Below, one piece after another: positions 16,723 through 31,623 of a stretch of 64,000 bases of DNA. Source of the stretch: a virus. Location of the stretch: positions 1 through 64,000 of the IMG/VR virus record IMGVR_UViG_3300045391_001876. One strand, written 5' to 3'. A program made the position numbers and the translations under genes. The stretch's first letter is position 1, and each line of letters begins with the position of its first letter. The notes beneath the pieces are model-generated. The model worked only from the letters and a program-made list of their open reading frames with translations. It did no database searches and was not told the DNA's origin.

Positions 16723-16741
16723 ACAGGGGAGGGAAAACCCC

Positions 16742-16927
16742 GTGGCACGAGGGAAGTCCAGCAAGCCCGCACCGATGCCGGGCGGTATGGATCACGTCAT
16801 GCCGACCGGTGGTGCGACGGCAGCAGAGAAACACCCGCCGGTCGACATGCCGCACCCGCTGCAAGCGGAGGTCCCGGCCACGTCCAGCACCGACGACGCA
16901 CACCCGCCAGGACCGGTCGCCAAGTAG
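16742..16927 (+). CDS. possible small protein (61 aa)
   Basis: GTG behind GGGAGGG. Pro/Ala-rich with weak coding signal. Confidence 0.3.
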   Translation: MARGKSSKPAPMPGGMDHVMPTGGATAAEKHPPVDMPHPLQAEVPATSSTDDAHPPGPVAK

Positions 16928-17069
16928 CGGCCGGCGGCTCCCACCACCTAGTCCCCACGACCGTCCACGCGGCAGGCCGCCAGCCACCGCATCCCTACTC
17001 CGGCAACACCCGAGGCAGCGCGCCACGCACCTCACCGTCAGTCCACAAGCGACAGTGAGGGGACTCGCC

Positions 17070-18341
17070 ATGAGCGAGATGACCGAGCGCCTACGGGAGC
17101 GCCGGCTCAACGTGTGGGAGCAGGCCAAGGCTTTGGCCGACCGCGCGGCGGACGAAAACCGCGCGTTCAGCTCCGAGGAGCAGGGCCAGTGGGACGCGCT
17201 GAACGAGGAGCTGGACAAGCTTGACGTTCGCATCAAGAGCGCGCTGGACGCACAGGAGCGCGCGAAGGAAGCCGACGCGGTCTTCGACCGGCTCGCCGGT
17301 GACAAGGCCGGCACCGACAAGCGCAACGCTGGCAACGACGGTGCGGACGCAAGCAAGACGGCCACGGAGCTGCGTGCGTTCCTGCGCGGCGAAGGCCCCC
17401 GTGCCATTGAGATCCGGCCGAACGGCCCGGTCAACTTCCGCACGCTCAGCAAGCTGACCACGGGCGCGGGTGGCAACCTCGTACCCACCACGTTCTATGA
17501 CCGCCTGATGGCCCACCTCATCGAGGTGAGCGCAATCCTCCAGGCCGGCGCGACTGTTCTCAATACCACGGGTGGCGAAAGCCTCCAGGTACCGAAGACG
17601 ACGGCCCACTCCACCGCGCTGCTGACCGCTGAGGCCGGCGCGCTCACCGCATCCGACCCGACGTTCGGCCAGGCATCCCTTGGTGCCTACAAGTACGGCC
17701 ACTTGGTCCAGGTCTCGCGGGAACTGCTCACCGACTCCGGTGTGGACCTGGAGGGCTACCTGGCCATGGAATCCGGGCGTGCACTGGGAAACGCGCTGGG
17801 CGCTGACCTGGTAACGGCCAATGGTTCCGGCAAGCCAACCGGCATCCTGAACAACACCACGCTTGGCGTTACCGGTCCTACCGGTGCCACGGGCGGTCTC
17901 GGTGCCACGTCGGCCACGCTGAACCAGGGCGCAGACCTACTGTTCGACCTGTTCTACAGCGTCATCGCTCCGTACCGCGCGTCCAGCGCCTGCGCATGGA
18001 TCGTGCGGGATGCCACGATGGCCGCGCTGCGGAAGATCAAGGACACCACCGGTCAGTACATCTTCCAACCCGCACTGGTGGCCGGCACACCGGACACCCT
18101 GATCGGGAAGCCCATCTACGTCGACCCCTTCGTGCCCGCGATCGCCACGGGTGCAAAGTCCATCATCTTCGGCGACATCAGCCAGTACTTCGTGCGGCTG
18201 GCCGGAGGCGTGCGCTTCGAGCGCTCGGACGAGTTCGCTTTCAACACCGACCTCGTCACCTTCCGTGCGTTGATTCGCGGGGACGGCATCCTGGTGGACC
18301 AGACCGGCGCGGTAAAGCACTTCATCGGAGCGACCACATAG
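17070..18341 (+). CDS. major capsid protein (HK97 fold) with N-terminal delta-like domain
   Basis: ATG 17070 (MSEMTERLRERR...), a coiled-coil N-terminus, then a typical HK97 MCP core (GGNLVPTTF..., YGHLVQVSRELL, TGQYIFQP). Confidence 0.9.
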   Translation: MSEMTERLRERRLNVWEQAKALADRAADENRAFSSEEQGQWDALNEELDKLDVRIKSALDAQERAKEADAVFDRLAGDKAGTDKRNAGNDGADASKTATELRAFLRGEGPRAIEIRPNGPVNFRTLSKLTTGAGGNLVPTTFYDRLMAHLIEVSAILQAGATVLNTTGGESLQVPKTTAHSTALLTAEAGALTASDPTFGQASLGAYKYGHLVQVSRELLTDSGVDLEGYLAMESGRALGNALGADLVTANGSGKPTGILNNTTLGVTGPTGATGGLGATSATLNQGADLLFDLFYSVIAPYRASSACAWIVRDATMAALRKIKDTTGQYIFQPALVAGTPDTLIGKPIYVDPFVPAIATGAKSIIFGDISQYFVRLAGGVRFERSDEFAFNTDLVTFRALIRGDGILVDQTGAVKHFIGATT

Positions 18342-18443
18342 ACCGGCTCGTCGGCCCTGGAGCCTTCAACCGGTTCCGGGGCCGACGACGGGCCAGATGA
18401 TCCACGAAGGGGTTGTGCATATGCGGCTACCGGCCATCGCTGT

Positions 18444-18977
18444 GTGCACGTGGTTGTGCCCCCGGCCGAGCTTGTCCAGGACGTGACCACCAACCCGCCG
18501 CCCAGCGATCCGGGTAACCCCGGCTGGACGCTTAACACCTTGCAAGCTCATGTGGCACAGGTCTTGGCCGAGCGGGACGCGCGGTACAGCCAGCGCATGG
18601 ACTCGATCGAACGCATGATCGAAATCATGGTGACCAGCCAGGCCGACAAGGTCACCTTGGCCCTGGCCAGCGCCGACAAGGCGGTGCTCAAAGCCGAGGC
18701 GGCCACGGAAAAGCGGTTCGAGGGCGTCAACGAGTTTCGCCAAGCGCTCACGGATCAAGCCGCAGCCTTCGTGACCCGGCGGGAGTTCGAGGCGTTGAGA
18801 ACGAGCGGTACGGAACGCATGGACGAGCTGAAAGAGCGCATGGACCGCACCACGGGTGTGACCGAGGGGGGCCGTACCCGAACCACCGACCAGCGCGCGG
18901 CGCTCGCGGCCTACGTAGGTCTAGCGGGACTACTGATCTCAGTGATCATCGTGGTGGCCACGATCCTGGCCCACTAG
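18444..18977 (+). CDS. coiled-coil protein with C-terminal transmembrane anchor (177 aa)
   Basis: Long helical region, then AALAAYVGLAGLLISVIIVVATILAH at the C-terminus. Confidence 0.5.
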   Translation: MHVVVPPAELVQDVTTNPPPSDPGNPGWTLNTLQAHVAQVLAERDARYSQRMDSIERMIEIMVTSQADKVTLALASADKAVLKAEAATEKRFEGVNEFRQALTDQAAAFVTRREFEALRTSGTERMDELKERMDRTTGVTEGGRTRTTDQRAALAAYVGLAGLLISVIIVVATILAH

Positions 18978-19014
18978 CTCCAGGACACCCAGAAAATCGG
19001 AGATCCCCTGACGT

Positions 19015-19054
19015 GCCGTGGCTTCCTGTCAACCACGGGGCAGGAAGCCACGGC
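19015..19054 (+). terminator. hairpin between head genes and sugar cassette
   Basis: 14-bp perfect stem gccgtggcttcctg / caggaagccacggc with a 12-nt loop. Confidence 0.45.
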
Positions 19055-19103
19055 GCCCCTCCACAAAGGACGGACATGACTCCACATAGGACAGTGGTTT
19101 GAG

Positions 19104-20285
19104 GTGCCCCTCAGGCGACAGTGCGCAGGCTGCGACTCGACCAGCCTGGACCCAGTGCTGGACCTGGGAAAGACACCTCTGGCCGACGCGTTTCCCCACA
19201 CGGCACAGGAGCCGGAGGTGTACTACCCGCTGGTCGTGGTGGTGTGCCGGTCATGCACGCTGGTTCAACTGGAGGACGTTGTCCCGGACGCGTTGCTGTA
19301 CGGGGCGGACTACGCGTTTCACTCCAGCGCGTCACCGGTCATCAGCGCATACCACCGGCAGTACGGCCAGTGGCTCATGGACCGGTATGGGGACAAAGCC
19401 CGTGCACTCACGGTGGAGATCGCTTGCAATGACGGCAGCCTTCTGTCCGTGCTTCACACCGCTGGTGCACGCGTGGTTGGCGTGGACCCGGCCACCAGCG
19501 CGGTGGAGGCCGCACGGGCTCGCGGTCTGTCCGTTGTGGACAGACCGTTCGACCAAGCCCTCGCCGCCGCGTTGCGTGACCAGTGGGGACCGGCAGGTCT
19601 GGTGGTTGCCAACAACGTGCTGGCACACGTGGCCGATCTTCACGGGTTCCTTGCAGCGGTGGAGTATCTGATGGCACCGGACGGCGTGGCCGTCGTGGAG
19701 TTCCAGTACCTACCGGATCTTCTGATCGGCAATCAGTGGGACCACGTCTACCACGAGCACCGCTTCTACCTGTCCGTGAACGCGCTGATCCCCATCCTGC
19801 GGCGTTACGGCCTGCATATCGTTCACCTACTGCGAACGCCCATGCAGGGCGGCAGCGTTCGTCTGAGCCTCACCAAAGCAGCCGGTCCGGTCGTGATGTT
19901 CCCCCGGGAAGATCGGTTGATGGTGCTGTTGGCCGGGTTCCAAGTTCGCGTGGACTACCTGGCCCGCCGTACCGCTGAACTGGTTCGCCAACAACAGGGC
20001 CGCGTGGCTGGTTACGGCGCGACCGCCAAGTCCGCAACTCTGCTGTCCTACTGCGGCATCGGTCCATCGGAGCTGGAGTACATAGTGGACACAACGCCCG
20101 GCAAGGTCGGGCGCGTCACGCCCGGCACGCATATCCCCGTGGTTGCCCCGGGAGACCAGCCGGTACCGGACGTGTACCTGTTGACCGCGTGGAACTACCT
20201 GGGCCGCGTGCTGTCCAACGAACGTAGCTTCTGCGACAACGGCGGTCGGTTCCTGGTACCCATTCCTGCCCCGGTGTTGCTGTGA
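19104..20285 (+). CDS. sugar-nucleotide C-methyltransferase-like SAM enzyme (TylCIII/NovU-type architecture)
   Basis: N-terminal zinc ribbon CAGCDS...CRSCTLVQL, SAM fold VEIACNDGS, and a C-terminal domain typical of NDP-hexose C-methyltransferases. Confidence 0.75.
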   Translation: MPLRRQCAGCDSTSLDPVLDLGKTPLADAFPHTAQEPEVYYPLVVVVCRSCTLVQLEDVVPDALLYGADYAFHSSASPVISAYHRQYGQWLMDRYGDKARALTVEIACNDGSLLSVLHTAGARVVGVDPATSAVEAARARGLSVVDRPFDQALAAALRDQWGPAGLVVANNVLAHVADLHGFLAAVEYLMAPDGVAVVEFQYLPDLLIGNQWDHVYHEHRFYLSVNALIPILRRYGLHIVHLLRTPMQGGSVRLSLTKAAGPVVMFPREDRLMVLLAGFQVRVDYLARRTAELVRQQQGRVAGYGATAKSATLLSYCGIGPSELEYIVDTTPGKVGRVTPGTHIPVVAPGDQPVPDVYLLTAWNYLGRVLSNERSFCDNGGRFLVPIPAPVLL

Positions 20286-21241
20286 GGGCGCTGATCACGG
20301 GTGTCTGCGGACAGGACGGTTCTTACCTGGCCGAACACCTTGCCGCTAGCGGGCACACCGTGTTCGGCTTGGTACGCGGACAGCCGAACGCGAAACGTGC
20401 CTGGATCGAGCGGCTGGTGCCTGGCATCAAGCTCGTGGAGGGAGACCTACTGGACCAGTCCAGTCTCCAGCGCGCGCTTGCCGCGAGTGAGCCCGACGTC
20501 GTCTACAACCTCGGTGCCATCACGTATGTCGGCATGTCCTGGCAGCAGCCAACGGTCATGTCAGAGGTCACCGGCCTCGGGGTGTTGCGATTGCTGGAGG
20601 CCGTCCGGGAGGTCAACCCGCGCGTCCGCGTCGTCCACGCCTCCAGCTCGGAGATGTTCGGGGACGCGCAGGAGAGCCCACAGACGGAGACCACGCGACT
20701 CGCGCCCCGTAGTCCCTACGGAGTAGCCAAGTGCTACGCGCACCACATGGTGCGCAACTACCGGGACTCCTACGGGCTGTTCGCGGCCACCGTGATCATG
20801 TTCAACCACGAGTCACCGCGACGCGGGACAGAGTTCGTCACGCGCAAGGTGACCCGAGCCGCGGCGCGTATTTCCCAGGGGCAGCAACGGTTTCTAGACC
20901 TGGGCAACGTGGACAGCCGACGAGACTGGGGTTGGGCACCGGAGTACATGACCGCGCTGCCGCTGGTGGCCCACCACACCGAGCCGGACGACTTCGTTGT
21001 GGCTACAGGGGAATCCCACAGCGTCCGGGAACTGGTGGCCGAAGCGTTCAGCGCCGTGGAGCTGGACTACCGCAATCACCTACGGATACGGGACAACCTG
21101 TATCGCCCGGCCGACGTAGACCATCTCCAGGGCGACGCAAGCAAGATACGGCGGACGTTCGGGTGGCAGGCCAACGTCGCGTTTGGACAAGTGGTCCGCC
21201 TGCTGGTGGCCCACGATCTGACCACGGTGGTGGCCGCGTGA
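20282..21241 (+). CDS. gmd: GDP-mannose 4,6-dehydratase
   Basis: ALITGVCGQDGSYLAEHL, YGVAKCYA and NHESPRRG motifs. Confidence 0.9.
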   Translation: MRALITGVCGQDGSYLAEHLAASGHTVFGLVRGQPNAKRAWIERLVPGIKLVEGDLLDQSSLQRALAASEPDVVYNLGAITYVGMSWQQPTVMSEVTGLGVLRLLEAVREVNPRVRVVHASSSEMFGDAQESPQTETTRLAPRSPYGVAKCYAHHMVRNYRDSYGLFAATVIMFNHESPRRGTEFVTRKVTRAAARISQGQQRFLDLGNVDSRRDWGWAPEYMTALPLVAHHTEPDDFVVATGESHSVRELVAEAFSAVELDYRNHLRIRDNLYRPADVDHLQGDASKIRRTFGWQANVAFGQVVRLLVAHDLTTVVAA

Positions 21242-21957
21242 AGTTCCTGCGACCAGCGGCTACAGCGATCCTGTGCAGCCACCGAAAGCACTACCTGGCC
21301 CACGCGCTACACGCTTTGACCCGCCAGACAAGAACTGACCTGCACATCCTGGTCCTGGACTCCGGTCAGTGGATCAACCGCGACGACGACCTGTCTCGGG
21401 CCATGCATCACATCTACCGCCGGTACGAACACCACCCGCTAGTGGAGTGGGTGTCCACGGGCGAGGGACCGGAGCTGCGGCGGGACGTGTGCCCCGTGGC
21501 ATGGGTAACGAACGAGGCCTTGCGAGCTGGGCTGGTACGCGGCCGGTACGTGTTTATGGCCTACGACGACGACGTACACCACCCGGAGTTCATGGCGCGG
21601 ATGGCCGGCTACCTGGACGACAACCCAGCGGCACAAGCGGTCTGGTGTTCTCAGGACCGCGTACGCCTTGGACCCAACGGGGAGAAGATCCTTGTCGGGC
21701 GCATCGCGGCCGAAGCACCACGGCATCCCGGCACGTGGGACTGTCATGTGGACGGCGCGCAAGTGATGATGCGCGCGGAAGTCCTGGACGCCATCGGCGA
21801 CCCGTGGTTGCCGGAGTCCCCCGACATCGGATCGTGTCGCCACTCAGACGGGCTGTTCCTGGAGAAGATGGGCCTTGTCACCGGTCCGGTTCCCAACATC
21901 CCGGACGTGCTGGTCACACACCGGTTCACACCACTGTCGACCTACACCCCGTCATGA
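21238..21957 (+). CDS. glycosyltransferase family 2-like
   Basis: GTG 21238 overlaps the gmd stop. AILCSHRKHYLAHALHALTRQT...LHILVLDSG and the DxD-like MAYDDDV. Confidence 0.75.
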   Translation: MKFLRPAATAILCSHRKHYLAHALHALTRQTRTDLHILVLDSGQWINRDDDLSRAMHHIYRRYEHHPLVEWVSTGEGPELRRDVCPVAWVTNEALRAGLVRGRYVFMAYDDDVHHPEFMARMAGYLDDNPAAQAVWCSQDRVRLGPNGEKILVGRIAAEAPRHPGTWDCHVDGAQVMMRAEVLDAIGDPWLPESPDIGSCRHSDGLFLEKMGLVTGPVPNIPDVLVTHRFTPLSTYTPS

Positions 21958-22172
21958 CCCCGGACAACCTTCGGCTGTCAACCGCTCTGTTCCGCGTGGG
22001 GGACGCCGTGGAGAAGTTCACGGGGGACTACCACCTGGTCGGGGAAGTGCGCGCCGTGTTCGTGACGCGGGCAGGCAAGGTGCGGTACGTGGTGGAGCAC
22101 ATGCCAGGTTTCCTACACATCTACGCGGCGAACAACCTGCGTGCGCTGGACGAGGACAGCCCACCGTCCTAA
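21954..22172 (+). CDS. hypothetical protein (72 aa)
   Basis: ATGA overlap with the GT2 stop. MTPDNLRLSTALFRVGDAVEKF... Confidence 0.5.
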   Translation: MTPDNLRLSTALFRVGDAVEKFTGDYHLVGEVRAVFVTRAGKVRYVVEHMPGFLHIYAANNLRALDEDSPPS

Positions 22173-22184
22173 GGAGACAGTCCA

Positions 22185-23147
22185 GTGAAGGTGTTCGGCT
22201 TCCATGACGGAGCCGCGTGCGGTTACTACCGCATGATGCTGCCACTGACCATGCTCGGCGACAACGGACACGAGGTGGACTTCAACCACGGCTGGCACGA
22301 GCGGGCCAAGGACTTTCCACTGATGGTGGGACAGCGCGTCGGCAAACCGGAGTCTCTGTCCATGTGGCGTCGGCTGGCTACCCCCGGTCGTCGTCTTGTA
22401 TGGGAGACAGACGACGACGTGTGGAACATCGACCCGGCCAACGGTGCCGCGTGGCTGGTCCACACCCCCGACGTACTGGACGCCCTTACCTTCACGGTCA
22501 ATACGGCGGACCTTGTAACCGTGTCAACGGAACCGCTCGCTGAAGTTGTCAGACCACTCAACCCCAACGTGGTGGTACTTCCCAACCACTTCGACGCCGC
22601 GCTCCTGGACGTTGTCCGTCCACAAAGGACAAAGATCACCGTGGGTTGGGCCGGTGGAGACAGCCACGTCCGTGACTTCGCAAGCGTCGCGTCCGTCCTT
22701 CGTCGCTTCCTTCTCCGTAACCCAGACGTGGACTTCCACAACATCGGCACTAGCTACCTCAACCCGTTCGGCCTACCAGGCCGGGCCACCACATGGTTGG
22801 CCGACGTGTGGGACTACTACCGCAGCATCGACTTCGATATCGGTATCGCACCCCTGGCCGACACCGTCTTCAACCGCAGCAAAAGCGGTATCAAGGCCCT
22901 GGAGTACCAGGCACTAGGTATCCCTGTGGTGGCCACGGACTGTCCGGCCTATCGCGGTGTAGTGCTGGACGGGGTAACCGGCTACCTGATCCGTAACGAA
23001 CACGAGTGGGGCCGGCGGCTGTACGAGCTGGCACGTGACCAGGACATGCGCGCGGAGATGGGCGCCAAGGGTCGGGAACACGCCGCACAGTGGACCATCC
23101 AACGGGGCTGGTCCCTGTGGGAAAAGGCGTACTCAGCCGTCGCGTAG
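22185..23147 (+). CDS. glycosyltransferase, GT-B fold (GT1/GT4-like)
   Basis: C-terminal SKSGIKALEYQALGIPVVATDCPAYRGVVLDGVTGYL is a typical GT-B nucleotide-sugar binding motif. Confidence 0.75.
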   Translation: MKVFGFHDGAACGYYRMMLPLTMLGDNGHEVDFNHGWHERAKDFPLMVGQRVGKPESLSMWRRLATPGRRLVWETDDDVWNIDPANGAAWLVHTPDVLDALTFTVNTADLVTVSTEPLAEVVRPLNPNVVVLPNHFDAALLDVVRPQRTKITVGWAGGDSHVRDFASVASVLRRFLLRNPDVDFHNIGTSYLNPFGLPGRATTWLADVWDYYRSIDFDIGIAPLADTVFNRSKSGIKALEYQALGIPVVATDCPAYRGVVLDGVTGYLIRNEHEWGRRLYELARDQDMRAEMGAKGREHAAQWTIQRGWSLWEKAYSAVA

Positions 23148-23381
23148 CGCGGCCGTCCACAACCTTCGCTCGCTTCTCTTGGCCTGGCGGCGACTTCGGG
23201 TGGACCGCCGGTGTCCCCACCCACGCGGCCCCACCTTGCGCCGCCGCCAGTCCTTACGCGTGGTGTCCACATGACAGGAGCAGTACCAGCGCTCCCCGCC
23301 TCGGCTTCCCAGCATCGGTGCCACAGCCAAGTCCCTTCCTCGGGTAACAACGTAACTCGTCATGAAAAGTGGTGTCCCGTC

Positions 23382-23582
23382 GTGCGCGTACGAATCCGGC
23401 AGTACATGTCAGGCACACGCAACGGGGAGGGCTGGCCCAACCCTGGGGAAGTGATGGAGGTCCCGGACCAGGAGGGAGCTGAGCTGTGTCGTAACGGGCT
23501 GGCCGAGCCCGTGAGCGAACCAGCTCCGGTTCAGCGCGCGGTTACCCCCACCCCGGAGAAGCGCTCGGCAGGGACACGCTGA
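23382..23582 (+). CDS. hypothetical protein (66 aa)
   Basis: GTG 23382 (VRVRIRQYMSGTRNGEGWPNPGEVMEVPDQEGAELCRNGLAEPV). Resembles small conserved actinophage head-tail region proteins. Confidence 0.45.
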   Translation: MRVRIRQYMSGTRNGEGWPNPGEVMEVPDQEGAELCRNGLAEPVSEPAPVQRAVTPTPEKRSAGTR

Positions 23583-23697
23583 GGCGCGCCGTGACACAAC
23601 CAATAGTGCTCGCGGAAGTAGTGGTCGTTGCTGACATCGAGGTGGTGTCCCCACCTGAGCCGGCACCAAAGCCGGACACGGACGGAAGTGACCCACA

Positions 23698-24066
23698 GTG
23701 ACAACCGGATTCGGTGCCGCCGGCCTGGCCAACGTGTGGCTCGACCAGTTGGACGGGTCCGCCGTCAAATTGCATACCGGTGACCCTGGTGTGGCCGGTA
23801 CGTCCAACGCCAGCGCGGAGACAACCCGCAAGGCCCTCACCTTCTCCGCCGCTTCGGCCGGTAGTAAGGCGGCCGTCGCAACGCTTCCCTCCTGGGCCAC
23901 CTGGTCGGCCGGATCGGAGACGTTGACCCACATCAGCCTGTGGACGGCCACGTCCGGGGGCACGTTCCGGTTGTCGCTCCCGCTCACCGCTTCCAAGGCA
24001 GTGGCCAACGGTGACACCGTCAACTTGACGAGCCTGACCATCGCGCTGATCCCGATCGCCGCGTAG
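23698..24066 (+). CDS. hypothetical structural-region protein (122 aa)
   Basis: KLHTGDPGVAGTSN...THISLWTATSGGTF pattern seen in phage structural modules. Confidence 0.5.
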   Translation: MTTGFGAAGLANVWLDQLDGSAVKLHTGDPGVAGTSNASAETTRKALTFSAASAGSKAAVATLPSWATWSAGSETLTHISLWTATSGGTFRLSLPLTASKAVANGDTVNLTSLTIALIPIAA

Positions 24067-24073
24067 GCCCACC

Positions 24074-24916
24074 GTGGCGGCCGTATTCGTCCAGGAAACC
24101 GGCGGCACCAGCGGAGCCAGCTCACCCGCGTCCTACGCGGTTACGCTCCCCAACCCCACCGTGTCCGGCAACCTGGTCGTGATCGTGATGGCCTCCGATG
24201 CCACGGTGGCGACACCGGCCGGGTTCTCCCTGGACAAGAGCCAGGTGAACAGCAACGGCCACTACCACTTCTCCAAGGTCGCGGCCGGGGAGAACAGTTG
24301 GACGGTTAGCCCGAACTCCTCGGCGGCCGGGTGTTGGTACGTGGCGGAGATATCTGGTCTGACAAGCACACCGCTAGATCAGACCGCATCCACGGGTGCC
24401 AGTACGGGCGCGACCACCCGGTCCACCGGCACCACCAGCGCGACAACACAGGCCGCGGAGCTGGCCATCGCCTCGTGGGGTTCCTCCAACGTGGGAACGG
24501 CGTTGACCTGGGGTGCTGAGAGCAACAGTTTCACCGAGCGAATCAGCGATGTTGTCACCTCCACGGCCGGGTCCAACGTGGCCCTTGCGGTCGCGTCCAA
24601 GGTGCTGTCTTCCATCGGCAGCGTGGAGTCCACGGCCACAGCGGACAGCGCGCAGGCACCCAAGTCCACCGGCATGGTGGTGACGTACCTGGTCGCGGCG
24701 GCTGGTGCCACGGTGACGCTCGACGGTGCACTTAGCGGCACCGGTCAGTTCACGGGGGCCGCGACGATGGGTCGCAACGTGGCCGCAAGCACTACGGGCA
24801 CAGGGCTTTTCACCGCAGCAACCGCCCAACCTGCCACGGTCGGCACGCTCACGTCCACCGATGCGCCGACGAGCACGCTCACGTCCACCGACCAGCGGAC
24901 AGGAGGACCAGCATGA
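24074..24916 (+). CDS. Ser/Thr/Ala-rich structural-region protein (280 aa)
   Basis: Long S/T/A/G tracts. The C-terminal LTSTDAPTSTLTSTD is encoded by a 30-bp tandem repeat. Confidence 0.6.
   Translation: MAAVFVQETGGTSGASSPASYAVTLPNPTVSGNLVVIVMASDATVATPAGFSLDKSQVNSNGHYHFSKVAAGENSWTVSPNSSAAGCWYVAEISGLTSTPLDQTASTGASTGATTRSTGTTSATTQAAELAIASWGSSNVGTALTWGAESNSFTERISDVVTSTAGSNVALAVASKVLSSIGSVESTATADSAQAPKSTGMVVTYLVAAAGATVTLDGALSGTGQFTGAATMGRNVAASTTGTGLFTAATAQPATVGTLTSTDAPTSTLTSTDQRTGGPA
24843..24891 (+). repeat. direct repeat, 19-bp gcacgctcacgtccaccga twice with 30-bp period
   Basis: Copies at 24843-24861 and 24873-24891, read directly. Confidence 0.9.
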
Positions 24917-25734
24917 CCCGGTATGCAGTGGGTCAACCGTTCCGACTGTCCACTGTGGTCACGGATATCGACGGTCTACCGGCCGACCCGACCGACATCT
25001 CCCTGCAACTGCTGTGCAGCGCGGACGGTATAACGGCCACCTACGCGTACAACCCGGGAGACATCGTCCGCACCGGCACCGGCCTGTACCGCCTCGACCT
25101 GTCCACGCTGACCGCGCTCGGACACTACGCCTACGTGTGGTTGACCACCGGGTCCAACGCCGGGGCCGGTCCTATGATCGGTACGTTCGAGCTGTACAAC
25201 CCGCTGGCCTTCAACGTGGTGTCCACAGACGACGCACGCCAGTACCTACGTCTGGTGGACGGGTCCGATGTGGACAGTGATGATGCCCGGCTGGCCGCGA
25301 TCATCGGATCGGTGACGGACGGGTTGACACGCCTCGTGGGTCCGCTGGTGCCGACCACGTACACGGAGACGCTGTTCGCAGCCGGCTTCCTGCAACTGGG
25401 ACGCGGTCCGGTGCGATCCATCACGTCCCTGACTGCACTGGGTTCTGCGCTAACCATCGCGGTGGCCGACGTGGAGGTACTACCGGGGGACGTAGTCCAG
25501 ATGACCAACCAAGCGTCCATCAACGGTTGGTACACGGTGGTCTACTCGGCCGGCCCCTCCACCATCCCCAACGATGTACGTACGGCGGCCCTGGACTGGA
25601 TCTTGCATCGCTGGCGCCAGACACAGGCTCACAGCTCCGCGACGTACGGGGACCTGATCCCGGACTTTGCCGGCCCACCCAACAGCGTGATGAACCAGGT
25701 ACGGCACTATCTGTTGACGCGGAGCGGGGTATGA
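24913..25734 (+). CDS. head-tail connector/adaptor protein (gp6-like C-terminal half)
   Basis: DDARQYLRLVDGSDVDSDDARLAAIIGSVTDGL is the typical gp6-like connector motif. The N-terminal half is an extra domain. Confidence 0.65.
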   Translation: MTRYAVGQPFRLSTVVTDIDGLPADPTDISLQLLCSADGITATYAYNPGDIVRTGTGLYRLDLSTLTALGHYAYVWLTTGSNAGAGPMIGTFELYNPLAFNVVSTDDARQYLRLVDGSDVDSDDARLAAIIGSVTDGLTRLVGPLVPTTYTETLFAAGFLQLGRGPVRSITSLTALGSALTIAVADVEVLPGDVVQMTNQASINGWYTVVYSAGPSTIPNDVRTAALDWILHRWRQTQAHSSATYGDLIPDFAGPPNSVMNQVRHYLLTRSGV

Positions 25735-26072
25735 CACTACGGGCGGCACGTGAATCCCTGACCGCCACGCTGGTGGCCTTGAACCTGTCCGGCGTTACCG
25801 TCCTTGGATTCGAGCCGACATCCCTCACGCGCGGTATCACAGTCACCGTGGCCAGCACTGGTATGGAGTCCGTGGAGTGGGTGTTGACCATCCGTGTGTA
25901 CGTCAACGGCATACAGACCGAGGAGGCACAGGACCTTCTCGACGACACAGTGTCCAGTGTGGACAGTGGCATGGTCAGCGTGCCGCGCACGTCCTGGACG
26001 TTCGGGTGGGACGCGTTGAGAAACGCCTACGTGGCAACGACCACGGCCATGTTCCCACGGGATGACTTCTGA
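25731..26072 (+). CDS. hypothetical head-tail joining region protein (113 aa)
   Basis: ATGA overlap with the upstream stop. Position. Confidence 0.5.
   Translation: MTLRAARESLTATLVALNLSGVTVLGFEPTSLTRGITVTVASTGMESVEWVLTIRVYVNGIQTEEAQDLLDDTVSSVDSGMVSVPRTSWTFGWDALRNAYVATTTAMFPRDDF
25952..25964. repeat. 13-bp word GTCCAGTGTGGAC (perfect copy 5)
   Basis: Read as S-S-V-D. The 19-mer tccagtgtggacagtggca (25953-25971) recurs at 38980-38998. Confidence 0.9.
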
Positions 26073-27094
26073 TGCGCGTGCTCGCCGTACAGCCAGGCCC
26101 GGACTTCTCCGTGGTAGATGTCCACAAAGGATGGACGGAGGCCCTGACCAACCTCGGGTGCGCTGTCTCGGACTTCAACCTGGGGGAACGGCTCACGTTC
26201 TACAGCCGCGCGCAGGTACGCGTGGAACCGGGGGTGTACAGCGAAGGACTGACACCCGAGCAGGCCATACAGCTCACGCTCAACGGGCTGTACGCCGCCA
26301 TGTACGTGGTGGTGCCGGAGGTTCTGTTGGTCACCAGCGGCTTCTACGTGACGGCTGAGTTGCTGGCCCGCGTCCGCGCGCACGGTACGCGCGTGGTGCT
26401 GTTGCATACGGAATCCCCGTATGAGGACGACCGCCAGCTCGAACGGGCCGCGTACGCCGACATCAATCTGATCAACGACCCGACCAACCTGGAGCAGTTC
26501 CGCGCGGTAGCCCCGACGTGGTACGTACCCCACGCGTACCGACCGTCCGTCCACCATCCCCGGCCCTGCCGCGACGGCTACCGCTCCGACTTCGCGTTCG
26601 TGGGTACCGGGTACCCCAGCAGGCAGGCGTTTTTTGAGCGCGTGAACTGGACCGGTCTGGACGTGGCCCTGGCCGGAAACTGGCCCGGTCTTACACCGGA
26701 GTCTCCACTACACCAGTACCTGGCCCATAAGCCGGACGAGTGTTGTGACAACACCGAAGCCGTGGACCTGTACGCCGGCACCAAGATGTCGGCCAACCTG
26801 TACCGCCGGGAAGCGGACCGTGACGCGCTGGTCCAGGGGTGGGCGATGGGACCTCGGGAAGTGGAGCTTGCCGCCACCGGCACGTTCTTCCTCCGGGAGC
26901 CGCGCGGGGAATCCGACACCGTGCTGTCGATGCTGCCCAGCTTCTCCGAGCCGGAAGACTTCGGGGAACAGGTCCGTTGGTGGATCGCTCATCCGGAGCA
27001 GCGCGAGGCTGCCGCCGAGCAGGCACGTACGGCCATCGCTGACCGTACGTTCACCAACCACGCCAAGATGTTGCTGCGCCTGCTGGGTGCCTAG
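26072..27094 (+). CDS. CgeB-like glycosyltransferase (Glyco_trans_1_2-type C-terminus)
   Basis: GPREVELAATGTFFLREP...FSEPEDFGEQVRWWIAHPEQREAAAEQARTAI matches the CgeB/DUF3880-type pattern. Confidence 0.65.
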   Translation: MRVLAVQPGPDFSVVDVHKGWTEALTNLGCAVSDFNLGERLTFYSRAQVRVEPGVYSEGLTPEQAIQLTLNGLYAAMYVVVPEVLLVTSGFYVTAELLARVRAHGTRVVLLHTESPYEDDRQLERAAYADINLINDPTNLEQFRAVAPTWYVPHAYRPSVHHPRPCRDGYRSDFAFVGTGYPSRQAFFERVNWTGLDVALAGNWPGLTPESPLHQYLAHKPDECCDNTEAVDLYAGTKMSANLYRREADRDALVQGWAMGPREVELAATGTFFLREPRGESDTVLSMLPSFSEPEDFGEQVRWWIAHPEQREAAAEQARTAIADRTFTNHAKMLLRLLGA

Positions 27095-27351
27095 CTACTG
27101 GCCGGCGTGATTGGACTGTCGAAGCAGCGCAACTCCCGCATGCGCTTGAACGCCGCGTCGTAGTAGTCCCTTGCGCTGTCGCGTTCCGCCTTGTCCAGCG
27201 TGGTTTGCAGGGCACCACAACTGCTCTCCTGCTTGATCTTGGTCAGCGTCGGGTCCTCCTTCGGCTTGCTGTGATCGCACGCGGCAAGCGACGTGGCCAC
27301 AGCAAGCGCGGTCAAAACCCTGGCACACACGGTGTGAGCGCTACGTGTCAT
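27091..27351 (-). CDS. small lipoprotein (86 aa)
   Basis: MTRSAHTVCARVLTALAVATSLAAC signal peptide with lipobox. Reverse strand, between the glycosyltransferase and the major tail gene. Confidence 0.55.
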   Translation of the reverse strand: MTRSAHTVCARVLTALAVATSLAACDHSKPKEDPTLTKIKQESSCGALQTTLDKAERDSARDYYDAAFKRMRELRCFDSPITPASS

Positions 27352-27414
27352 ACAGCAACTATGCCTATCCGCGCGCCGAGTTAGCAACACCCAACCTGAC
27401 AGGACGTGATCCGC

Positions 27415-27813
27415 ATGGCTCGTATCGCCGGCCGGCGTGGACGTGTGTACATCGCAATCACCAGTGGTGGAACGGCCACCCCGCTGCCGTTCGTGGCCAC
27501 GTGGGCGATCAATTTCGCCACGGATAAGTTCGACGTCACCACGATGGACGACACAACCAAGGTCTACGTCGCTGGTCTTCCCGACTCCTCCGGTACGTTC
27601 GCCGGCTTCTACGACGACGCAACACCTCAGACGTACACGGCCGCGACCGACGGCGTAGCTCGGGCCTTCTATATGTATCCTTCGCTGGCCACGGCGACGC
27701 AGTACTGGTTCGGCACGGTACTGCCGGACTTCTCCGTGGACGGTGACGTCGGTGGTCCGGTCAAGATGAACGTGACCTGGGCGGCGGCCACACCGTTGCA
27801 GAAGGTCGGGTAA
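27415..27813 (+). CDS. major tail protein
   Basis: MARIAGRRGRVYIAITSGG...DVTTMDDTTKVYVAGLPDSSGTFAGFYDD is a tail-tube-like pattern. Position before the chaperones. GTG 27406 is an alternative start. Confidence 0.7.
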   Translation: MARIAGRRGRVYIAITSGGTATPLPFVATWAINFATDKFDVTTMDDTTKVYVAGLPDSSGTFAGFYDDATPQTYTAATDGVARAFYMYPSLATATQYWFGTVLPDFSVDGDVGGPVKMNVTWAAATPLQKVG

Positions 27814-27821
27814 GCCGAGCG

Positions 27822-28259
27822 ATGACCGACGTGTCGATTACCACACGCGGTCTCAACGAGGCTGTCCAGCGCCTGCGCGCGGCCGACGCCGTTGTGCAGA
27901 AGGAGTTCCGGGTCGCGCTGACCGAGGCTGCTGCGCCGTTTATCAAGGCGGCGCGTGCCAACGCCAGCAGTCGACTGCCCCACCGTGGTGGGCTTGCCGC
28001 GCTGGTAGCGGCCTCGGAGTTCGAGGTCGTTCCACTGCACGGGCGTGGTGTGGCCGGGCTGCGTGTTACCAACCGAGCGCACGACAAGCGCATAGACAAA
28101 GGGCAACTACGCCACCCGGTGTGGGGGCACTGGCGTTCCATCGCAAGCCAGCCCGTACCCCCGGGCTGGTTTAGCGACGCCGGTCCACAAGCGACTCCCG
28201 CGATACGCCGGCTCATGCTGGCGGCCACCTCCCGCGTGGCCAAGAAGGTGGCCGGATGA
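27822..28259 (+). CDS. HK97 gp10-like tail/neck component
   Basis: LNEAVQRLRAAD...FIKAARANASSRLPHRGGLAALV resembles the gp10 family. Unusual position after the major tail gene. Confidence 0.45.
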   Translation: MTDVSITTRGLNEAVQRLRAADAVVQKEFRVALTEAAAPFIKAARANASSRLPHRGGLAALVAASEFEVVPLHGRGVAGLRVTNRAHDKRIDKGQLRHPVWGHWRSIASQPVPPGWFSDAGPQATPAIRRLMLAATSRVAKKVAG

Positions 28260-28591
28260 AGTTCACCATCGACGTGGAGCCGTTCACAGGCCAGGTTTTT
28301 GAGCTGCTACCCCAGGACGACCTGACATGGGCCGAGGCCGGGGAGCTGGAATCCGTACTGGGCGTGTCCCTCACCGAGCTGGACGACGTGGACACCGGAC
28401 GCCGACTACGGCGCAGTTCCCGTGCCCTGTCGGCGTTTCTGTGGATCAGCATCCGGCGACAACGACCCGGAACCAGCTACGAGGACGTAGCCAACACACC
28501 ACAGAACGCCGTCACATGGGTACCTGAGCAGGAGTCGCCGGACCCTACCGACGCGTCCGCAACGGACCAGACCACCGACAGACCCGACTGA
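28256..28591 (+). CDS. tail assembly chaperone (G-like)
   Basis: Acidic 111-aa protein directly upstream of the tape measure gene. Its 3' end is overlapped by an open -1 frame. Confidence 0.65.
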   Translation: MKFTIDVEPFTGQVFELLPQDDLTWAEAGELESVLGVSLTELDDVDTGRRLRRSSRALSAFLWISIRRQRPGTSYEDVANTPQNAVTWVPEQESPDPTDASATDQTTDRPD

Positions 28592-28722: not shown

Positions 28723-31623
28723 ATGGCGGAGCTTGCGTTTGACGTCGTCCTCAACGACCGTGGCAGTAACGCCGGCTTCACCAAGCTGGCCGAGTCCATC
28801 CGCAAGTCCGGTGTGGCAGCGCAAAAGGCGGAGGACGCTCAGCTCAAGCTCGGTGCCGCATCCTTGCGTGGCAAGAAGGCCGCGCTGGACCTGTCGACGG
28901 CAGAAGAGAAACTCAACAAGGTCACGGCCAGCAGCAAGTCCAGCGCGGAGGAGAAGGCCCGCGCGCAGCTCGCGGTGGAGAAGGCCCAACTCAAGGTCGC
29001 CCAGTCCAACCGGGACACTGCTCGGGCCACAGACGAACTGACTGCCGCGACCGTCAAAGGCACAAAGAGCACGGGTCTGTCTCGGGAGATCCTGTTCGGC
29101 GCGGGAGTCGCCGCAGCCGCTGGTGCCGTGGGACTTCGCAAGATCATCGGCGCGTCGATGGACTTCGACAAGGCGATGAGCGGCGTTCAGGCCGTAGCCG
29201 GGGCATCCGCGCAACAACTGGACCTGCTGCGTACAGCCGCGCTCAACGCCGGGCGGGACACGTCCTTCTCCGCATCGGAAGCGGCAGTAGCGGAATCGGA
29301 ACTGGCCAAAGCGGGTGTGTCCACTTCGGACATCCTCGGCGGCGCGCTGACCGGTGCACTAAGCCTTGCTGCCGCTGGACAACTGGACCTCGGGGAAAGT
29401 GCCACCATCGCTGCCCAAGCGATGAACATCTTCAAACTCAAGGGCTCCGATGTAACCCACATCGCGGACGTACTAGCGGCCGGCGCCAACAAGAGCGCTG
29501 CCGACGTAGGTCAGCTCGGCGCTGCGATGGGGCAATCCGGGCTGGTCGCCTCGCAACTGGGCATCAGTTTCGAGGACACGATCGCCGCCCTGTCCGCGTT
29601 CGCGGACAACGCGACTGTGGGATCGGACGCCGGTACGTCGCTGAAGACCATGCTGCTCAAGCTGGCCGGACCGTCCGTGGCGTCCGCCAACACGATGAAG
29701 CAGCTCGGTATCAACGCGTTCGACGCAAGCGGCGAGTTCGTTGGCCTGGAGAAGTTCGCGGGCATCCTGCAATCGCGGCTCGGCAAGCTGACCACCCAAC
29801 AGCGCGACCAGGCTCTCACCACGATCTTCGGCACGGACGCCATCCGTGGTGCGAACATCCTGTTTTCCCTTGGTGCCAAGGGTGTTCACGACTACGCGGT
29901 CGCCGTTAACGACTCCGGTGCAGCCGGACGCAACGCGGCCATACAGATGGACAACCTGTCCGGGGATGTGGAAGCGCTACGCGGCAGCCTGGAGACCGCG
30001 TTTATCAAGACAGGCTCGGCGGCCAACGGTGTTCTGCGCGCGATGGCCAAGCAAACCGCTGGCGTGGTTAACGCGTTTAGCAACCTGCCCGGCCCGGTTC
30101 AAGCTGCTGGTCTGTCACTGCTGGCAGCAGGAACCGCTGGAGCTGGCCTGCTGGCCGCCTTCGGCACGATCGGACCGAAGATCACGGCCGCGCGCAACAG
30201 CCTCCAGGAGATGGGACGAGCTGGCCAGGTCGCCAACACCGCGATCGGCAAGATCGGCAAGGGTCTTGCTATCGGTAGCGGCGTTCTCGTCGGCCTGGAG
30301 ACCGCCGGTATCGCCATCAAAGCCCTACAGGACGCGGTCGTTGGTGCTGTGCCCGGTGTCAACGAACTGACCAAGTCGCTACTGGCCACAAAGGACACTG
30401 CCGGTGTCCTGGAGGTTGTCGGCGGGGACCTCACGCAGTTCGGGGAGCGGGTCCGCATCCTGTCGGACCCATCCGTGGAGCAGAAGTTCTCGTCCACAAT
30501 GGACTCAATCTTCACGCTGGGCCACGCAAAGCCCAAGAGCCTCCGTGTGGCCACGGACCAACTGGGCGCACTGGACAAGGCACTGACCGGCCTTGTCGAA
30601 GGTGGGCACAAGGAGCAGGCGGAGATCCTGTTCAAGCACCTTGCTGACGCCGCCGCAAAGGGCGGTGCGTCCGTGGACGAGCTGAAGAAGACCCTCCCCG
30701 GCTATGAGGACGCGCTAGCCGGTGTCGCGGTCAGCAACACGCTGGCCGCCGACGCAACCGACAAGCACACCGGTTCGGCCAACAAGGCCCGGGTGGCGTT
30801 GGGGGAAGAGAAGACGGTTGCGGAGCAACTGAAAGACAAGCTGGACGCGCTGAACGACGCCAACCTGTCCGCTGGCGAAGCCGATGACCACTTCCGCACA
30901 ACGCTGCTGGATCTGACGGAGACGATCCATGACGGTGGCAAGGGCCTTGATATCAGCGCGGCCAAGACAGACAAGCAGCGTCGCGCGGTCATCGCCAACC
31001 GCGAAGCCGTCTTTTCCGCCATCCGTGCCGCACAGACACACGCGCAAGCAGTGGCCACACAGACAGGTTCCGTCGCGGCTGGCACTACCGAGTTCGGCAA
31101 GCACATCACAGCGCTACGCAAAACCCTTGCTGCCGCTGGCCTTCTCCCGGGTGCTATCGACGCGATCATCAGAGAGTACGGCCAGGTTCCCGCGCTGGTA
31201 ACCACCAACGTCAAAGCCAACACAGCATCCGCACAACGGGCACTGGCCAACATCGACGGCGCAATCCGTCGTATCAAGCAACAAGACGGCACCACGGTCA
31301 CGGTATTCGTACGCCAGGAAGCGACCGGACCGGAGCTGATCGTGAACGGCAAGGTCAAGGCTCGCGCTTCCGGTGGGCCGGTGGAGGCGGGACAACCCTA
31401 CGTGGTGGGTGAGAACGGTCCAGAGCTGTTCGTGCCGGCTCGCGCAGGCACCGTGATGTCCAGCAGCGTTTCGATGGGCCGGTCCGTCTCCGTTGGTTCT
31501 GGGGCCGTGCAGGTGGTGTTCAACGGACCCGTGGGAGCGGGGGCCGCAACGGAAGTCCGCCAAGCGGTGGAGCAAGCGCTGTACCGGCTACGTACGGAAC
31601 TGGTGACGGGGGCACGCCGATGA
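28723..31623 (+). CDS. tape measure protein
   Basis: 966 aa, Ala/Gly-rich and helical, with the conserved TMP core (MSGVQAVAGASAQQL...AGANKSAADVGQLGAAMGQSG). Confidence 0.9.
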   Translation: MAELAFDVVLNDRGSNAGFTKLAESIRKSGVAAQKAEDAQLKLGAASLRGKKAALDLSTAEEKLNKVTASSKSSAEEKARAQLAVEKAQLKVAQSNRDTARATDELTAATVKGTKSTGLSREILFGAGVAAAAGAVGLRKIIGASMDFDKAMSGVQAVAGASAQQLDLLRTAALNAGRDTSFSASEAAVAESELAKAGVSTSDILGGALTGALSLAAAGQLDLGESATIAAQAMNIFKLKGSDVTHIADVLAAGANKSAADVGQLGAAMGQSGLVASQLGISFEDTIAALSAFADNATVGSDAGTSLKTMLLKLAGPSVASANTMKQLGINAFDASGEFVGLEKFAGILQSRLGKLTTQQRDQALTTIFGTDAIRGANILFSLGAKGVHDYAVAVNDSGAAGRNAAIQMDNLSGDVEALRGSLETAFIKTGSAANGVLRAMAKQTAGVVNAFSNLPGPVQAAGLSLLAAGTAGAGLLAAFGTIGPKITAARNSLQEMGRAGQVANTAIGKIGKGLAIGSGVLVGLETAGIAIKALQDAVVGAVPGVNELTKSLLATKDTAGVLEVVGGDLTQFGERVRILSDPSVEQKFSSTMDSIFTLGHAKPKSLRVATDQLGALDKALTGLVEGGHKEQAEILFKHLADAAAKGGASVDELKKTLPGYEDALAGVAVSNTLAADATDKHTGSANKARVALGEEKTVAEQLKDKLDALNDANLSAGEADDHFRTTLLDLTETIHDGGKGLDISAAKTDKQRRAVIANREAVFSAIRAAQTHAQAVATQTGSVAAGTTEFGKHITALRKTLAAAGLLPGAIDAIIREYGQVPALVTTNVKANTASAQRALANIDGAIRRIKQQDGTTVTVFVRQEATGPELIVNGKVKARASGGPVEAGQPYVVGENGPELFVPARAGTVMSSSVSMGRSVSVGSGAVQVVFNGPVGAGAATEVRQAVEQALYRLRTELVTGARR
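30473..30520. repeat. 48-nt segment, inverted near-copy of 3221..3268
   Basis: See 3221..3268. It lies in the tape measure gene in a different reading phase from its partner. Confidence 0.85.
30492..30504. repeat. 13-bp word GTCCACAATGGAC (perfect copy 6)
   Basis: Read as S-T-M-D in the tape measure protein. Confidence 0.9.

Follow-up and report, generated by a model that had tools for sequence, protein, structure and literature searches.

To our knowledge, a few mycobacteriophages are the only phages in which glycosylation of the virion has been demonstrated to date; there it alters antibody recognition. The chlorovirus PBCV-1 reportedly glycosylates its major capsid protein independently of host machinery, using a virus-encoded GDP-mannose 4,6-dehydratase (GMD) and transferases, and this GMD is said to reduce the 4-keto intermediate to GDP-D-rhamnose as well. 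For the mycobacteriophages Corndog (Cluster O) and Che8 (Cluster F1), virion glycosylation systems are reported whose enzymes, in Corndog, modify the capsid and the tail tube (Freeman 2023, as cited in PMC11600133, PMC11256854 and PMC10877033), and the Cluster O mycobacteriophages have an O-methyltransferase and transferases within the structural operon (PMC4351075). A GDP-virenose pathway made up of the Gmd CBU0689, the TylCIII-like protein CBU0691 and the GMER CBU0688 has been put forward for Coxiella burnetii, itself as an in-silico proposal (PMC3539893).

The locus described here occupies positions 19,104 to 27,094 of a 64,000-nucleotide stretch of viral DNA (positions 1 to 64,000 of the IMG/VR record IMGVR_UViG_3300045391_001876), which we call the window, which has a GC content of 65% and which covers most of a 68,638-bp JGI metagenome contig. 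It contains genes for a sugar C-methyltransferase (C-MT), a GMD (Gmd) and two glycosyltransferases (GT2 and GT-B), followed further downstream by a third glycosyltransferase (GT3) encoded just before a probable tail-tube gene (p132). We suggest that these genes constitute a late-expressed, phage-encoded system that would decorate virion proteins. The explanation that we favour, and that we hold with modest confidence, is that virion proteins are glycosylated with a GDP-derived 6-deoxy-3-C-methylhexose, the 4-reduction of which would be carried out by a bifunctional Gmd, by C-MT or by the host. No description of phage-encoded nucleotide-sugar tailoring of this kind was found in the literature searched.

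Enzymes of the cassette

The features that matter most to this argument are listed below in window coordinates; L001 to L029 are labels of the loci that were compared in relatives and homologs.

16695..18341 (+), HK97-type major capsid protein (phrog_10, 1.8e-75), a candidate glycan acceptor
19104..20285 (+), C-MT, a sugar 3-C-methyltransferase of the TylCIII/KijD1/TcaB9/MtmC family (PF08421, PF13489 and PF08484)
20282..21241 (+), Gmd (PF16363, 5e-109)
21238..21957 (+), GT2, a GT-A/GT2-like, SpsA-like glycosyltransferase (weak GT2 match; DDD motif aligned to SpsA)
21954..22172 (+), 72-aa protein with no assigned function (50% identical homolog in L001)
22185..23147 (+), GT-B, a GT4-like transferase of the GT1/GT4 family, PimA/MshA-like
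26072..27094 (+), GT3, a CgeB-like glycosyltransferase with a GT-B fold (PF13524, 5e-12)
27415..27813 (+), p132, a probable tail tube (major tail) protein of 132 aa, with its start revised from homologs, a candidate acceptor for GT3

C-MT has a zinc ribbon (PF08421, 1.3e-18) followed by a class I S-adenosylmethionine (SAM) methyltransferase domain and the C-terminal PF08484 domain, and it matches KijD1 (5t64, 8e-77, residues 6-389), MtmC (4rv9, 2e-70) and TcaB9 (3ndi, 1e-67) in the PDB over its full length. Residues C7, C10, C48 and C51 are invariant or nearly invariant across homologs. Its Y-H-E-H motif aligns with Y-D-E-H of KijD1, and across homologs H217, E218 and H219 never vary and H175 almost never; the Tyr-x-Glu-His and an upstream His would be the active-site residues, by the roles reported for TcaB9. 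The predicted activity of C-MT is SAM-dependent methylation of a nucleoside diphosphate (NDP)-4-keto sugar. No dTDP-glucose pathway genes were found in domain scans of the window ORFs. In the Pfam scans some window ORFs were run as concatenated sequences, in which weak matches may be lost, and the ‘Serglycin’ matches of that scan were discarded as artefacts of the Gly-Ser linkers.

The best PDB matches of Gmd are all GMDs, led by the Pseudomonas aeruginosa enzyme (1rpn, 3e-90). Eleven GMD structures score between 257 and 306 bits against it, compared with just 114 bits (6e-32) for the Rmd structure 2pk3. Against TIGR01472 it scores 331 bits (7e-99), which is under the equivalog cut-off of 415, and this family is the top one by a wide margin. 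Gmd belongs to the short, P. aeruginosa-like type, and in the alignment to 1rpn the catalytic residues are present as S-S-E (S-x-E) and P-Y-G-V-A-K (Y-x3-K). A Ser in place of Thr126 is also known from other GMDs that are active (PMC3539893). Dehydratase activity would follow from this family membership.

The first five genes of the cassette are translationally coupled, with GTGA overlaps between C-MT and Gmd and between Gmd and GT2, an ATGA overlap between GT2 and the 72-aa ORF, and an AGGAG ribosome-binding site ahead of the GT-B gene. All cassette ORFs are intact with coding third-position GC content (GC3). The 72-aa protein had no family match in the profile scans. An earlier note, written from the letters of this DNA, had named a zinc-ribbon C-methyltransferase, a GMD, a GT2-like enzyme, a GT-B enzyme and a CgeB-like third transferase at these starts, and the Pfam and structural searches assign the proteins to the same enzyme families; the 72-aa ORF that it listed is a real gene, having its counterpart in L001. 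The same note placed the cassette among head-tail genes and called the gene after the third transferase the major tail gene. Both statements held, the terminase, portal, protease and capsid genes lying upstream and the tape measure and tail protein genes downstream, and p132 being most likely the tail tube by PHROG, Foldseek and tblastn annotations.

A megablast search of the cassette against cultured phages gave no match, and tblastn searches of 50,697 cultured or deposited phage records found no relatives of C-MT or Gmd in actinophages. C-MT matched eight of these records, from huge or uncultured phages and one cyanophage, and Gmd matched 89, from cyanomyoviruses, archaeal viruses and faecal contigs; an ‘M. 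avium’ record among the Gmd matches was rejected as a phage, being a bacterial GPL locus. GT2 and GT3 had no match at all among the same records, and the best match of GT-B was gp5 of Streptomyces phage Zuko at 38%.

Distribution of the cassette and its insertion site

The database homologs of C-MT number 3,554 at E <= 1e-30. A survey of viral C-MT genes found relatives on at least 124 IMG/VR contigs, and 80 loci were sampled in detail. The same lower bound is given for the C-MT–Gmd–GT2 core, which is also present in two prophages of a cultured strain, Micromonospora sp. WMMD1102. A Gmd-family gene lies no more than 1.5 kb downstream of C-MT and on the same strand in 49 of the 80 sampled loci, homologs of the window transferases are present in 63 of them, and the C-MT plus Gmd loci surveyed span 38-71% C-MT identity. 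When the contexts of six C-MT homologs (46-67% identity) were sampled, all six were phage structural regions. Among these contexts are the following:

L029 (64.5 kb): capsid, EndoVII, GT-B, C-MT, Gmd, GT2
L027, from a Trueperaceae contig whose capsid is of another family: GT, C-MT, Gmd, GT2 and Dit
L028: a phage of 94 kb that encodes WhiB and carries a C-MT homolog
L025 and L026, Micromonospora sp. WMMD1102 prophages: portal, ClpP-type protease, capsid, C-MT, Gmd, GT2, GT3, a 133-aa protein, tape measure

The cassette proteins of the window and the Micromonospora prophage are 49-69% identical (63% for GT2); their portals are 27% identical and the relationship of their capsids is undetectable. 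These comparisons show the C-MT–Gmd–GT2 core to be a mobile phage module. The Micromonospora C-MT homolog, considered as a cellular comparator, was set aside because it sits in a prophage. The two prophages lie about 48 kb apart on JARUBN010000001.1 of assembly GCA_029626265.1 (L025 at 53378-74598 and L026 at 5374-26594) and are base-for-base identical over their first 16.3 kb, from portal through GT3, diverging from the start of the tail-tube gene; they may be two mosaic prophages with a common head-plus-glycosylation module, or an assembly artefact.

In the nearest relatives of the window phage (L001, L002, L003 and L017, with capsids 73-85% identical) C-MT, Gmd and GT2 follow the capsid gene in the same order, with GT2 61-81% identical in L001-L003, and GT-B and GT3 are also syntenic wherever the contig reaches far enough. 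In more distant relatives (capsid 46-58%), including two Streptomyces prophages, the homolog of a conserved 66-aa protein encoded at 23382 in the window abuts the capsid gene and there is no cassette. Because this gene follows the capsid directly in cassette-free relatives, the cassette is an insertion at a post-capsid slot. The contents of the slot vary. In L004, L008 and L024 it holds a Methyltransf_24 O-methyltransferase and a GT2 together with a window GT-B homolog, and sometimes also a short-chain dehydrogenase/reductase (SDR) or a flavin (FAD) enzyme; in the O-methyltransferase-type cassettes of L004 and L008 the GT-B homologs have stayed in the slot that the gene occupies in the window. 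L006 has another variant of the set, with an SDR, a GT2, a GT-B and a C-MT. On this comparison the slot is a hotspot in which relatives hold O-methyltransferase or SDR variants, or nothing, and related phages would exchange their ‘glycan type’ there. The flavoenzyme of L008 (L008:9510-10505) is a 331-aa FAD/NAD(P)-binding oxidoreductase (PF01266, PF13450) that might modify the sugar, for example as a pyranose-furanose mutase, and would then be another tailoring variant at the slot.

Two features of this distribution support virion proteins as the target. The cassette always lies beside capsid or tail genes in unrelated phage lineages, and relatives of the window phage carry Corndog-like O-methyltransferase plus glycosyltransferase cassettes at the very same slot.

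Predicted reduction of the 4-keto sugar

The virenose-type pathway set is represented in the window by Gmd and the TylCIII-type C-MT; a GMER/Rmd 4-reductase was not found there. The earlier note had recognised no 4-ketoreductase or epimerase in the cassette, and this held over a wider range. When the window and the three relatives nearest to it, L001-L003, were searched in all six-frame ORFs with the window Gmd and a phage GDP-fucose synthase, Gmd was the sole SDR found, and Pfam and NCBIfam scans of the neighbouring and remaining window ORFs yielded no epimerase or reductase. A second SDR occurs within ±10 kb in just one of the 49 viral C-MT plus Gmd loci. Two exceptions illustrate the pathway in complete form: L006 has an SDR epimerase/reductase beside its GT2, GT-B and C-MT, and the cyanophage DSL-LC02 has a GDP-L-fucose synthase with its Gmd and C-MT homolog.

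With a reductase missing from 48 of 49 loci, the biochemical question arises of how the 4-keto group comes to be reduced. Bifunctional GMDs are known, the P. aeruginosa enzyme among them, and some GMDs have the same Thr-to-Ser change (PMC3584063, PMC3539893); the P. aeruginosa GMD is the best PDB match of the window Gmd. In addition, MtmC is both a C-methyltransferase and a 4-ketoreductase (PMC10269268). By analogy, a bifunctional Gmd, an MtmC-like activity of C-MT and a host enzyme are candidates for the 4-keto reduction.

A pathway that looks incomplete could also be read in another way, namely as passenger cargo that plays no part in the life cycle of the phage: a piece of a deoxysugar or natural-product cluster of actinobacterial origin that the phage acquired, possibly decaying in the absence of its reductase. 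The TylCIII family is indeed typical of antibiotic deoxysugar pathways (PMC3539893). The ORFs, however, are intact, translationally coupled and have coding GC3, their catalytic motifs are conserved, and the reductase-less architecture recurs in 48 of the 49 viral loci across 38-71% C-MT identity, which argues for purifying selection rather than decay. We consider this the least probable of the explanations weighed here.

GT3 and the probable tail-tube gene

GT3 is coupled to the preceding gene through TGATG. Its AlphaFold model (pLDDT 93) has a GT-B fold, and Foldseek matches at 1e-10 to 1e-8 include sucrose-phosphate synthase, a mycobacterial methylmannose-polysaccharide mannosyltransferase, MshA, BshA, GtfC and PglA. 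More than 2,500 homologs of GT3 are present in metagenomic data, many of them on contigs of 30-68 kb. In L023, L024, L025 and L002 the GT3 gene lies directly upstream of a gene for a protein of 132-135 aa, which is followed by chaperone-like genes and the tape measure gene, and the adjacency of GT3 and p132 is found in 12 of 15 viral loci with enough downstream sequence. The best homologs of GT3 and of p132 also fall on contigs of identical size.

Several lines of evidence identify p132, which is 55-76% identical across lineages, as the tail tube. It has weak PHROG major-tail matches, its sole tblastn matches in cultured phages are annotated as ‘tail tube protein’ or ‘major tail protein’, and its gene lies upstream of chaperone-like genes and the tape measure gene. 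Its Foldseek neighbours are mostly siphophage tail-tube proteins (lambda gpV, GTA, 80alpha, monocin, T1 and TP901-1-type), matches which, owing to the weakness of the p132 model, were taken as enrichment evidence alongside the other lines. A profile search of p132 against PDB sequences gave no match. Taken together, we are fairly confident that p132 is the tail tube. A p132 homolog is also found directly after the capsid gene in L006 (4116-4523) and L007 (4372-4779), upstream of the glycosylation genes, an odd position for a tail tube gene.

The conserved neighbourhood indicates that GT3 and the tail-tube gene are inherited together. Because of this co-inheritance, the tail tube is the most plausible target of GT3, and it strengthens the suggestion of the earlier note that head and tail are separate targets, which is plausible. 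Between GT3 and p132 is a 320-bp gap (27095-27414) in an otherwise tightly packed operon, which may hold a promoter or other regulatory element for the tail genes. An antisense ORF at 27091-27390 was rejected as a gene, as it is not conserved when compared with the one called in L024 (E 0.67).

The phage and the surroundings of the cassette

By its gene content this soil phage is temperate and siphophage-like. Tail protein and endolysin genes also lie on the plus strand of the structural module, a primase-helicase and PolA are encoded elsewhere in the window, and near its right end is a host-like gene for an NMT1/THI5-like substrate-binding-protein homolog (61842-62993 (-), PF09084, 1e-5). The lineage is unrepresented among cultured phages, the identity of the capsid to those of cultured phages being no more than about 35%. 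Its relatives are IMG/VR contigs, contigs of Jiangellaceae and Kribbellaceae metagenome-assembled genomes and Streptomyces prophages, and the host is therefore taken to be an actinobacterium. The remaining features around the cassette are the following:

11061 (+), large terminase, by profile matches
13736 (+), portal, by profile matches
15168 (+), protease, by profile matches
18348..18388 (+), GC-rich hairpin with a 17-bp stem and without a U tract, immediately after the capsid stop
18444..18977 (+), 177-aa protein whose translation is rich in Pro at the N-terminus, helical in the middle and anchored by a transmembrane segment at the C-terminus
19013..19056 (+), hairpin with a perfect 18-bp stem and without a U tract, 48 nt upstream of the cassette
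23382..23582 (+), conserved 66-aa protein at the downstream edge of the insertion slot; homologs align from residue 58 of a longer ORF
23698..24066 (+), Gp80-like/phrog_240 head-associated protein, absent from L001 and L002
24074..24916 (+), 280-aa ORF with no assigned function, coding by its GC3 of 0.81-0.83
24913..25734 (+), conserved protein of 273 aa from the neck/connector region, sharing 37% identity with an L024 protein recorded as PF24163 (HCP)
25731..26072 (+), conserved protein of 113 aa, its gene coupled through ATGA to the one before it
27822..28591 (+), two small ORFs in the tail assembly chaperone position between p132 and the tape measure
28723..31623 (+), tape measure protein (phrog_1533, 1e-97)
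41849-43390, large serine recombinase

The five ORFs that begin at 23382, 23698, 24074, 24913 and 25731 correct the earlier note, which had counted four genes between GT-B and the third transferase. It was right that a hairpin precedes the cassette; the stem is not the 14 bp at 19015-19054 that it gave and is instead 18 bp long, at 19013-19056. The 280-aa ORF had no homologs in the relatives and no family match, and a profile search of the 24913 protein against PDB sequences found nothing. The L001 homolog of the 25731-26072 protein (L001:11522-12634) has N-terminal DUF4082 and PKD (Ig-like) domains, and a separate DUF4082 protein lies at the equivalent place in the Micromonospora prophage (L025:13273-13833); these are domains of surface-display or carbohydrate-binding type, in the neck region beside GT3.

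The hairpin at 19013-19056 is a strong one (z -6.6, with none of 200 shuffles folding as well), and hairpins of differing sequence occur after the capsid gene in L001 and L003 and upstream of C-MT in L025 and L029. The hairpin at 18348-18388 is probably an attenuator or a terminator without a U tract. Both hairpins probably act as attenuators that lower transcription from structural to catalytic levels. A scan for sigma-70-like promoters and U-tract terminators, which is ill-suited to GC-rich actinobacterial DNA and told little here, found no sigma-70-like promoter. The 177-aa protein flanked by these two strong hairpins had no family match and no homolog in L001-L020, and its gene could be a moron, for instance a superinfection-exclusion gene.

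The main surviving rival of virion glycosylation concerns the host. The cassette might modify a glycopolymer or glycolipid of the host cell envelope, during infection or lysogeny, and so bring about superinfection exclusion or receptor masking in the manner of prophage-encoded serotype-converting or wall-teichoic-acid transferases. The phage is temperate and has a large serine recombinase, a terminator-like hairpin stands before the cassette as it would before a moron, a tail-anchored membrane protein is encoded just upstream, and lipid-linked or polymeric acceptors are the usual ones for GT4 and GT2 enzymes of this type. The swapping of variants at one locus would fit the diversification of host surface antigens too. 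On the other hand, neither a flippase nor a GT-C nor a polyprenyl-phosphate transferase was found in domain scans of the cassette or the window. The late structural operon contains the cassette, which reads in the same direction, is translationally coupled and is about 19 kb away from the integrase, and no sigma-70-like promoter was found by the scan, which is weak for actinobacteria. The co-inheritance of GT3 and the tail-tube gene across lineages would also be left unexplained, and for these reasons we think it unlikely that the host envelope is the target.

Between the protease and capsid genes, an unusual place, a 261-aa ORF (15937-16722, +) resembles part of a C5 cytosine DNA methylase (profile positions 45-113 of the 324 of PF00145, E 7e-5, and phrog_363); it is 67% identical in L001 and absent from other cassette-bearing relatives, L003 and L025 included. 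A QueE-like radical-SAM protein is encoded at 7556-8278 (+) (TIGR03365, 4e-28), and in L001 a QueC gene (PF06508, 6e-62) and DUF6884 are inserted within the glycosylation cassette (L001:6979-8060). Modification of DNA with 7-deazaguanine may thus occur in this phage group; no TGT/DpdA-like gene was found in the window.

In another explanation the transferases would attach sugars to a hydroxylated base and so hypermodify the DNA of the phage, in the manner of T4-like or TET/5mYOX-associated systems, with Gmd and C-MT supplying an unusual sugar donor. Hypermodification clusters have been reported near phage structural genes (10.1101/2023.12.21.572611), and the methylase-like ORF, the QueE-like gene at 7556, the QueC inside the L001 cassette and the presence of the T4 alpha-glucosyltransferase among the structural neighbours of GT3 all fit. 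Against this, TET/JBP, 2OG-dioxygenase, ThyA/ThyX-like hydroxymethylase and TGT/DpdA domains were not found in any window ORF by the Pfam scans, some of them of concatenated sequences, and the explanation is weakened because no machinery for a hydroxylated base was found. The methylase-like ORF is a partial profile match and is not co-inherited with the cassette, as L003 and L025 have the cassette without it; UDP-sugars are the inferred donors for the DNA transferases of PMC13326640; and the linkage of GT3 with the tail tube would have no explanation. We therefore regard DNA glycosylation as very unlikely.

Proposed pathway and its weighing

Our preferred explanation, glycosylation of the virion, can be set out as a sequence of steps. 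Phage Gmd would dehydrate host GDP-mannose to GDP-4-keto-6-deoxy-D-mannose. C-MT with SAM would then methylate the carbon beside the keto group, most likely C3, a position suggested by the family membership of C-MT and by its conserved adjacency to Gmd. The 4-keto group would be reduced by a Gmd that is bifunctional like the enzymes of P. aeruginosa and A. thermoaerophilus, by an MtmC-like activity of C-MT or by a host Rmd/Fcl, giving a GDP-6-deoxy-3-C-methylhexose of the evalose or virenose type. GT2 and the GT4-like GT-B would build the glycan, most plausibly on the capsid, and GT3 would most plausibly glycosylate the tail tube. The virion-protein acceptors, the sugar structure, the nucleotide specificity of C-MT and the regiochemistry of methylation are predictions of this scheme. 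In proposing a phage-made branched sugar on virion proteins, the earlier note was borne out as to the enzyme identities and the missing reductase; acceptor, sugar structure and nucleotide specificity stay predicted.

A number of observations weigh against this explanation. The characterised members of the C-MT family use dTDP-sugars, and we infer the use of a GDP-sugar by C-MT solely from the adjacency of its gene to that of Gmd. The hairpin at 19013-19056 could be a full terminator and isolate the cassette as a moron. The capsid C-termini have no convincing acceptor signature, the structural neighbours of GT3 span polysaccharide, small-molecule, protein and DNA transferases so that the fold gives no acceptor, and the AlphaFold model of p132 is poor (pLDDT 51). 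In the tblastn searches of the 50,697 phage records GT2, GT-B and GT3 had no match in a mycobacteriophage (Corndog or Che8). The post-capsid slot also takes unrelated cargo, L001 having QueC and DUF6884 there and both L008 and L029 an endonuclease VII, and for that reason the position in the slot is weak evidence when taken alone. For this phage and its relatives, virion glycosylation is a prediction from the genes.

The capsid termini gave one further observation. Capsids from loci with GT-B mostly end in Thr (ATT, AAT, GAT or PAT), and those of cassette-free relatives end in Ala or Ser. The terminal Thr was not used as an acceptor signal, as L003 and L017 (AAV) break the pattern and the sample is small and phylogenetically dependent.

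A more elaborate version of virion glycosylation would join a two-enzyme module, in which C-MT or Gmd also carries out the reduction, to capsid glycans specified by a hot-swappable C-methyl/O-methyl/SDR locus and tail-tube glycans added by a co-evolving GT3. As a combination we offer it tentatively and find it rather doubtful. If it is true, virion glycosylation would be common and diversifying in soil actinophages and not peculiar to a few mycobacteriophages, and the hot-swappable post-capsid ‘glycotype’ locus would be analogous to O-antigen loci.

More generally, the locus suggests that phages may carry nucleotide-sugar tailoring chemistry, here Gmd and C-MT for a rare branched sugar, and not transferases alone. 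The module appears to be common in uncultured soil phages and to move between unrelated head types, and the exchange of alternative sugar cassettes at a single locus among related phages suggests that the surface of the particle is under diversifying selection. The question of the reductase is directly testable, since two prophages bearing the module are present in cultured Micromonospora sp. WMMD1102. For glycoengineering, too, enzymes that make rare sugars from GDP-sugars would be of use.

Comparison with known systems

PBCV-1, with its reported GMD and capsid glycosylation, is a giant eukaryotic virus with an unrelated capsid architecture and is said to have no C-methyltransferase. Among phages, the Synechococcus phage DSL-LC02 (L021, OR032571.1, 94.4-102.4 kb) has a cluster of Gmd, a C-MT homolog, GDP-L-fucose synthase, a GT, a GT4, an FkbM methyltransferase and further GTs. 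As in the window, Gmd adjoins the C-MT homolog (26% identity, 99% coverage) and several transferases. DSL-LC02, however, is a T4-like cyanomyovirus whose cluster is outside the head-tail genes shown and includes a 4-reductase/epimerase. The published description of this phage names Gmd and the fucose synthase and does not name the C-methyltransferase between them (PMC10611076).

The antibiotic 3-C-methyltransferases TylCIII, EryBIII, KijD1, TcaB9 and MtmC share with C-MT full-length homology, the zinc ribbon, the SAM and C-terminal domains and the Y-x-E-H motif. They act on dTDP-2,6-dideoxy or amino sugars in natural-product clusters, whereas the partner of the window enzyme is a phage Gmd. 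MtmC also provides a precedent for a second, 4-ketoreductase activity within the C-MT fold (PMC10269268). With the Coxiella burnetii pathway the window shares the pair of a Gmd and a TylCIII-type 3-C-methyltransferase for a 6-deoxy-3-C-methylhexose, and the Gmd has the same Thr-to-Ser catalytic change (PMC3539893). The two differ in that Coxiella has a GMER/Fcl epimerase-reductase, which was not found in the window, and in the destination of the sugar, which is the lipopolysaccharide O-antigen there; the window genes, by contrast, are set within the head-tail module of a phage.

Corndog and Che8 are like the window phage in having actinophage-encoded glycosyltransferases and a sugar-methylating enzyme, which in Corndog, as in the window, lie within the virion structural genes. 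The likeness to Corndog is seen further in the window relatives L004, L008 and L024, which carry a similar set of O-methyltransferase, GT2 and GT-B. The positions differ, the Corndog genes being between portal and protease and those of the F1 phages near the right genome end, compared with after the capsid and before the tail tube here. By sequence, the transferases of the window appear to lie outside the Corndog and Che8 families. In its working the predicted system would nevertheless resemble Corndog and Che8, with the difference that the window phage encodes its own nucleotide-sugar tailoring in Gmd and C-MT, as known here from the genes.

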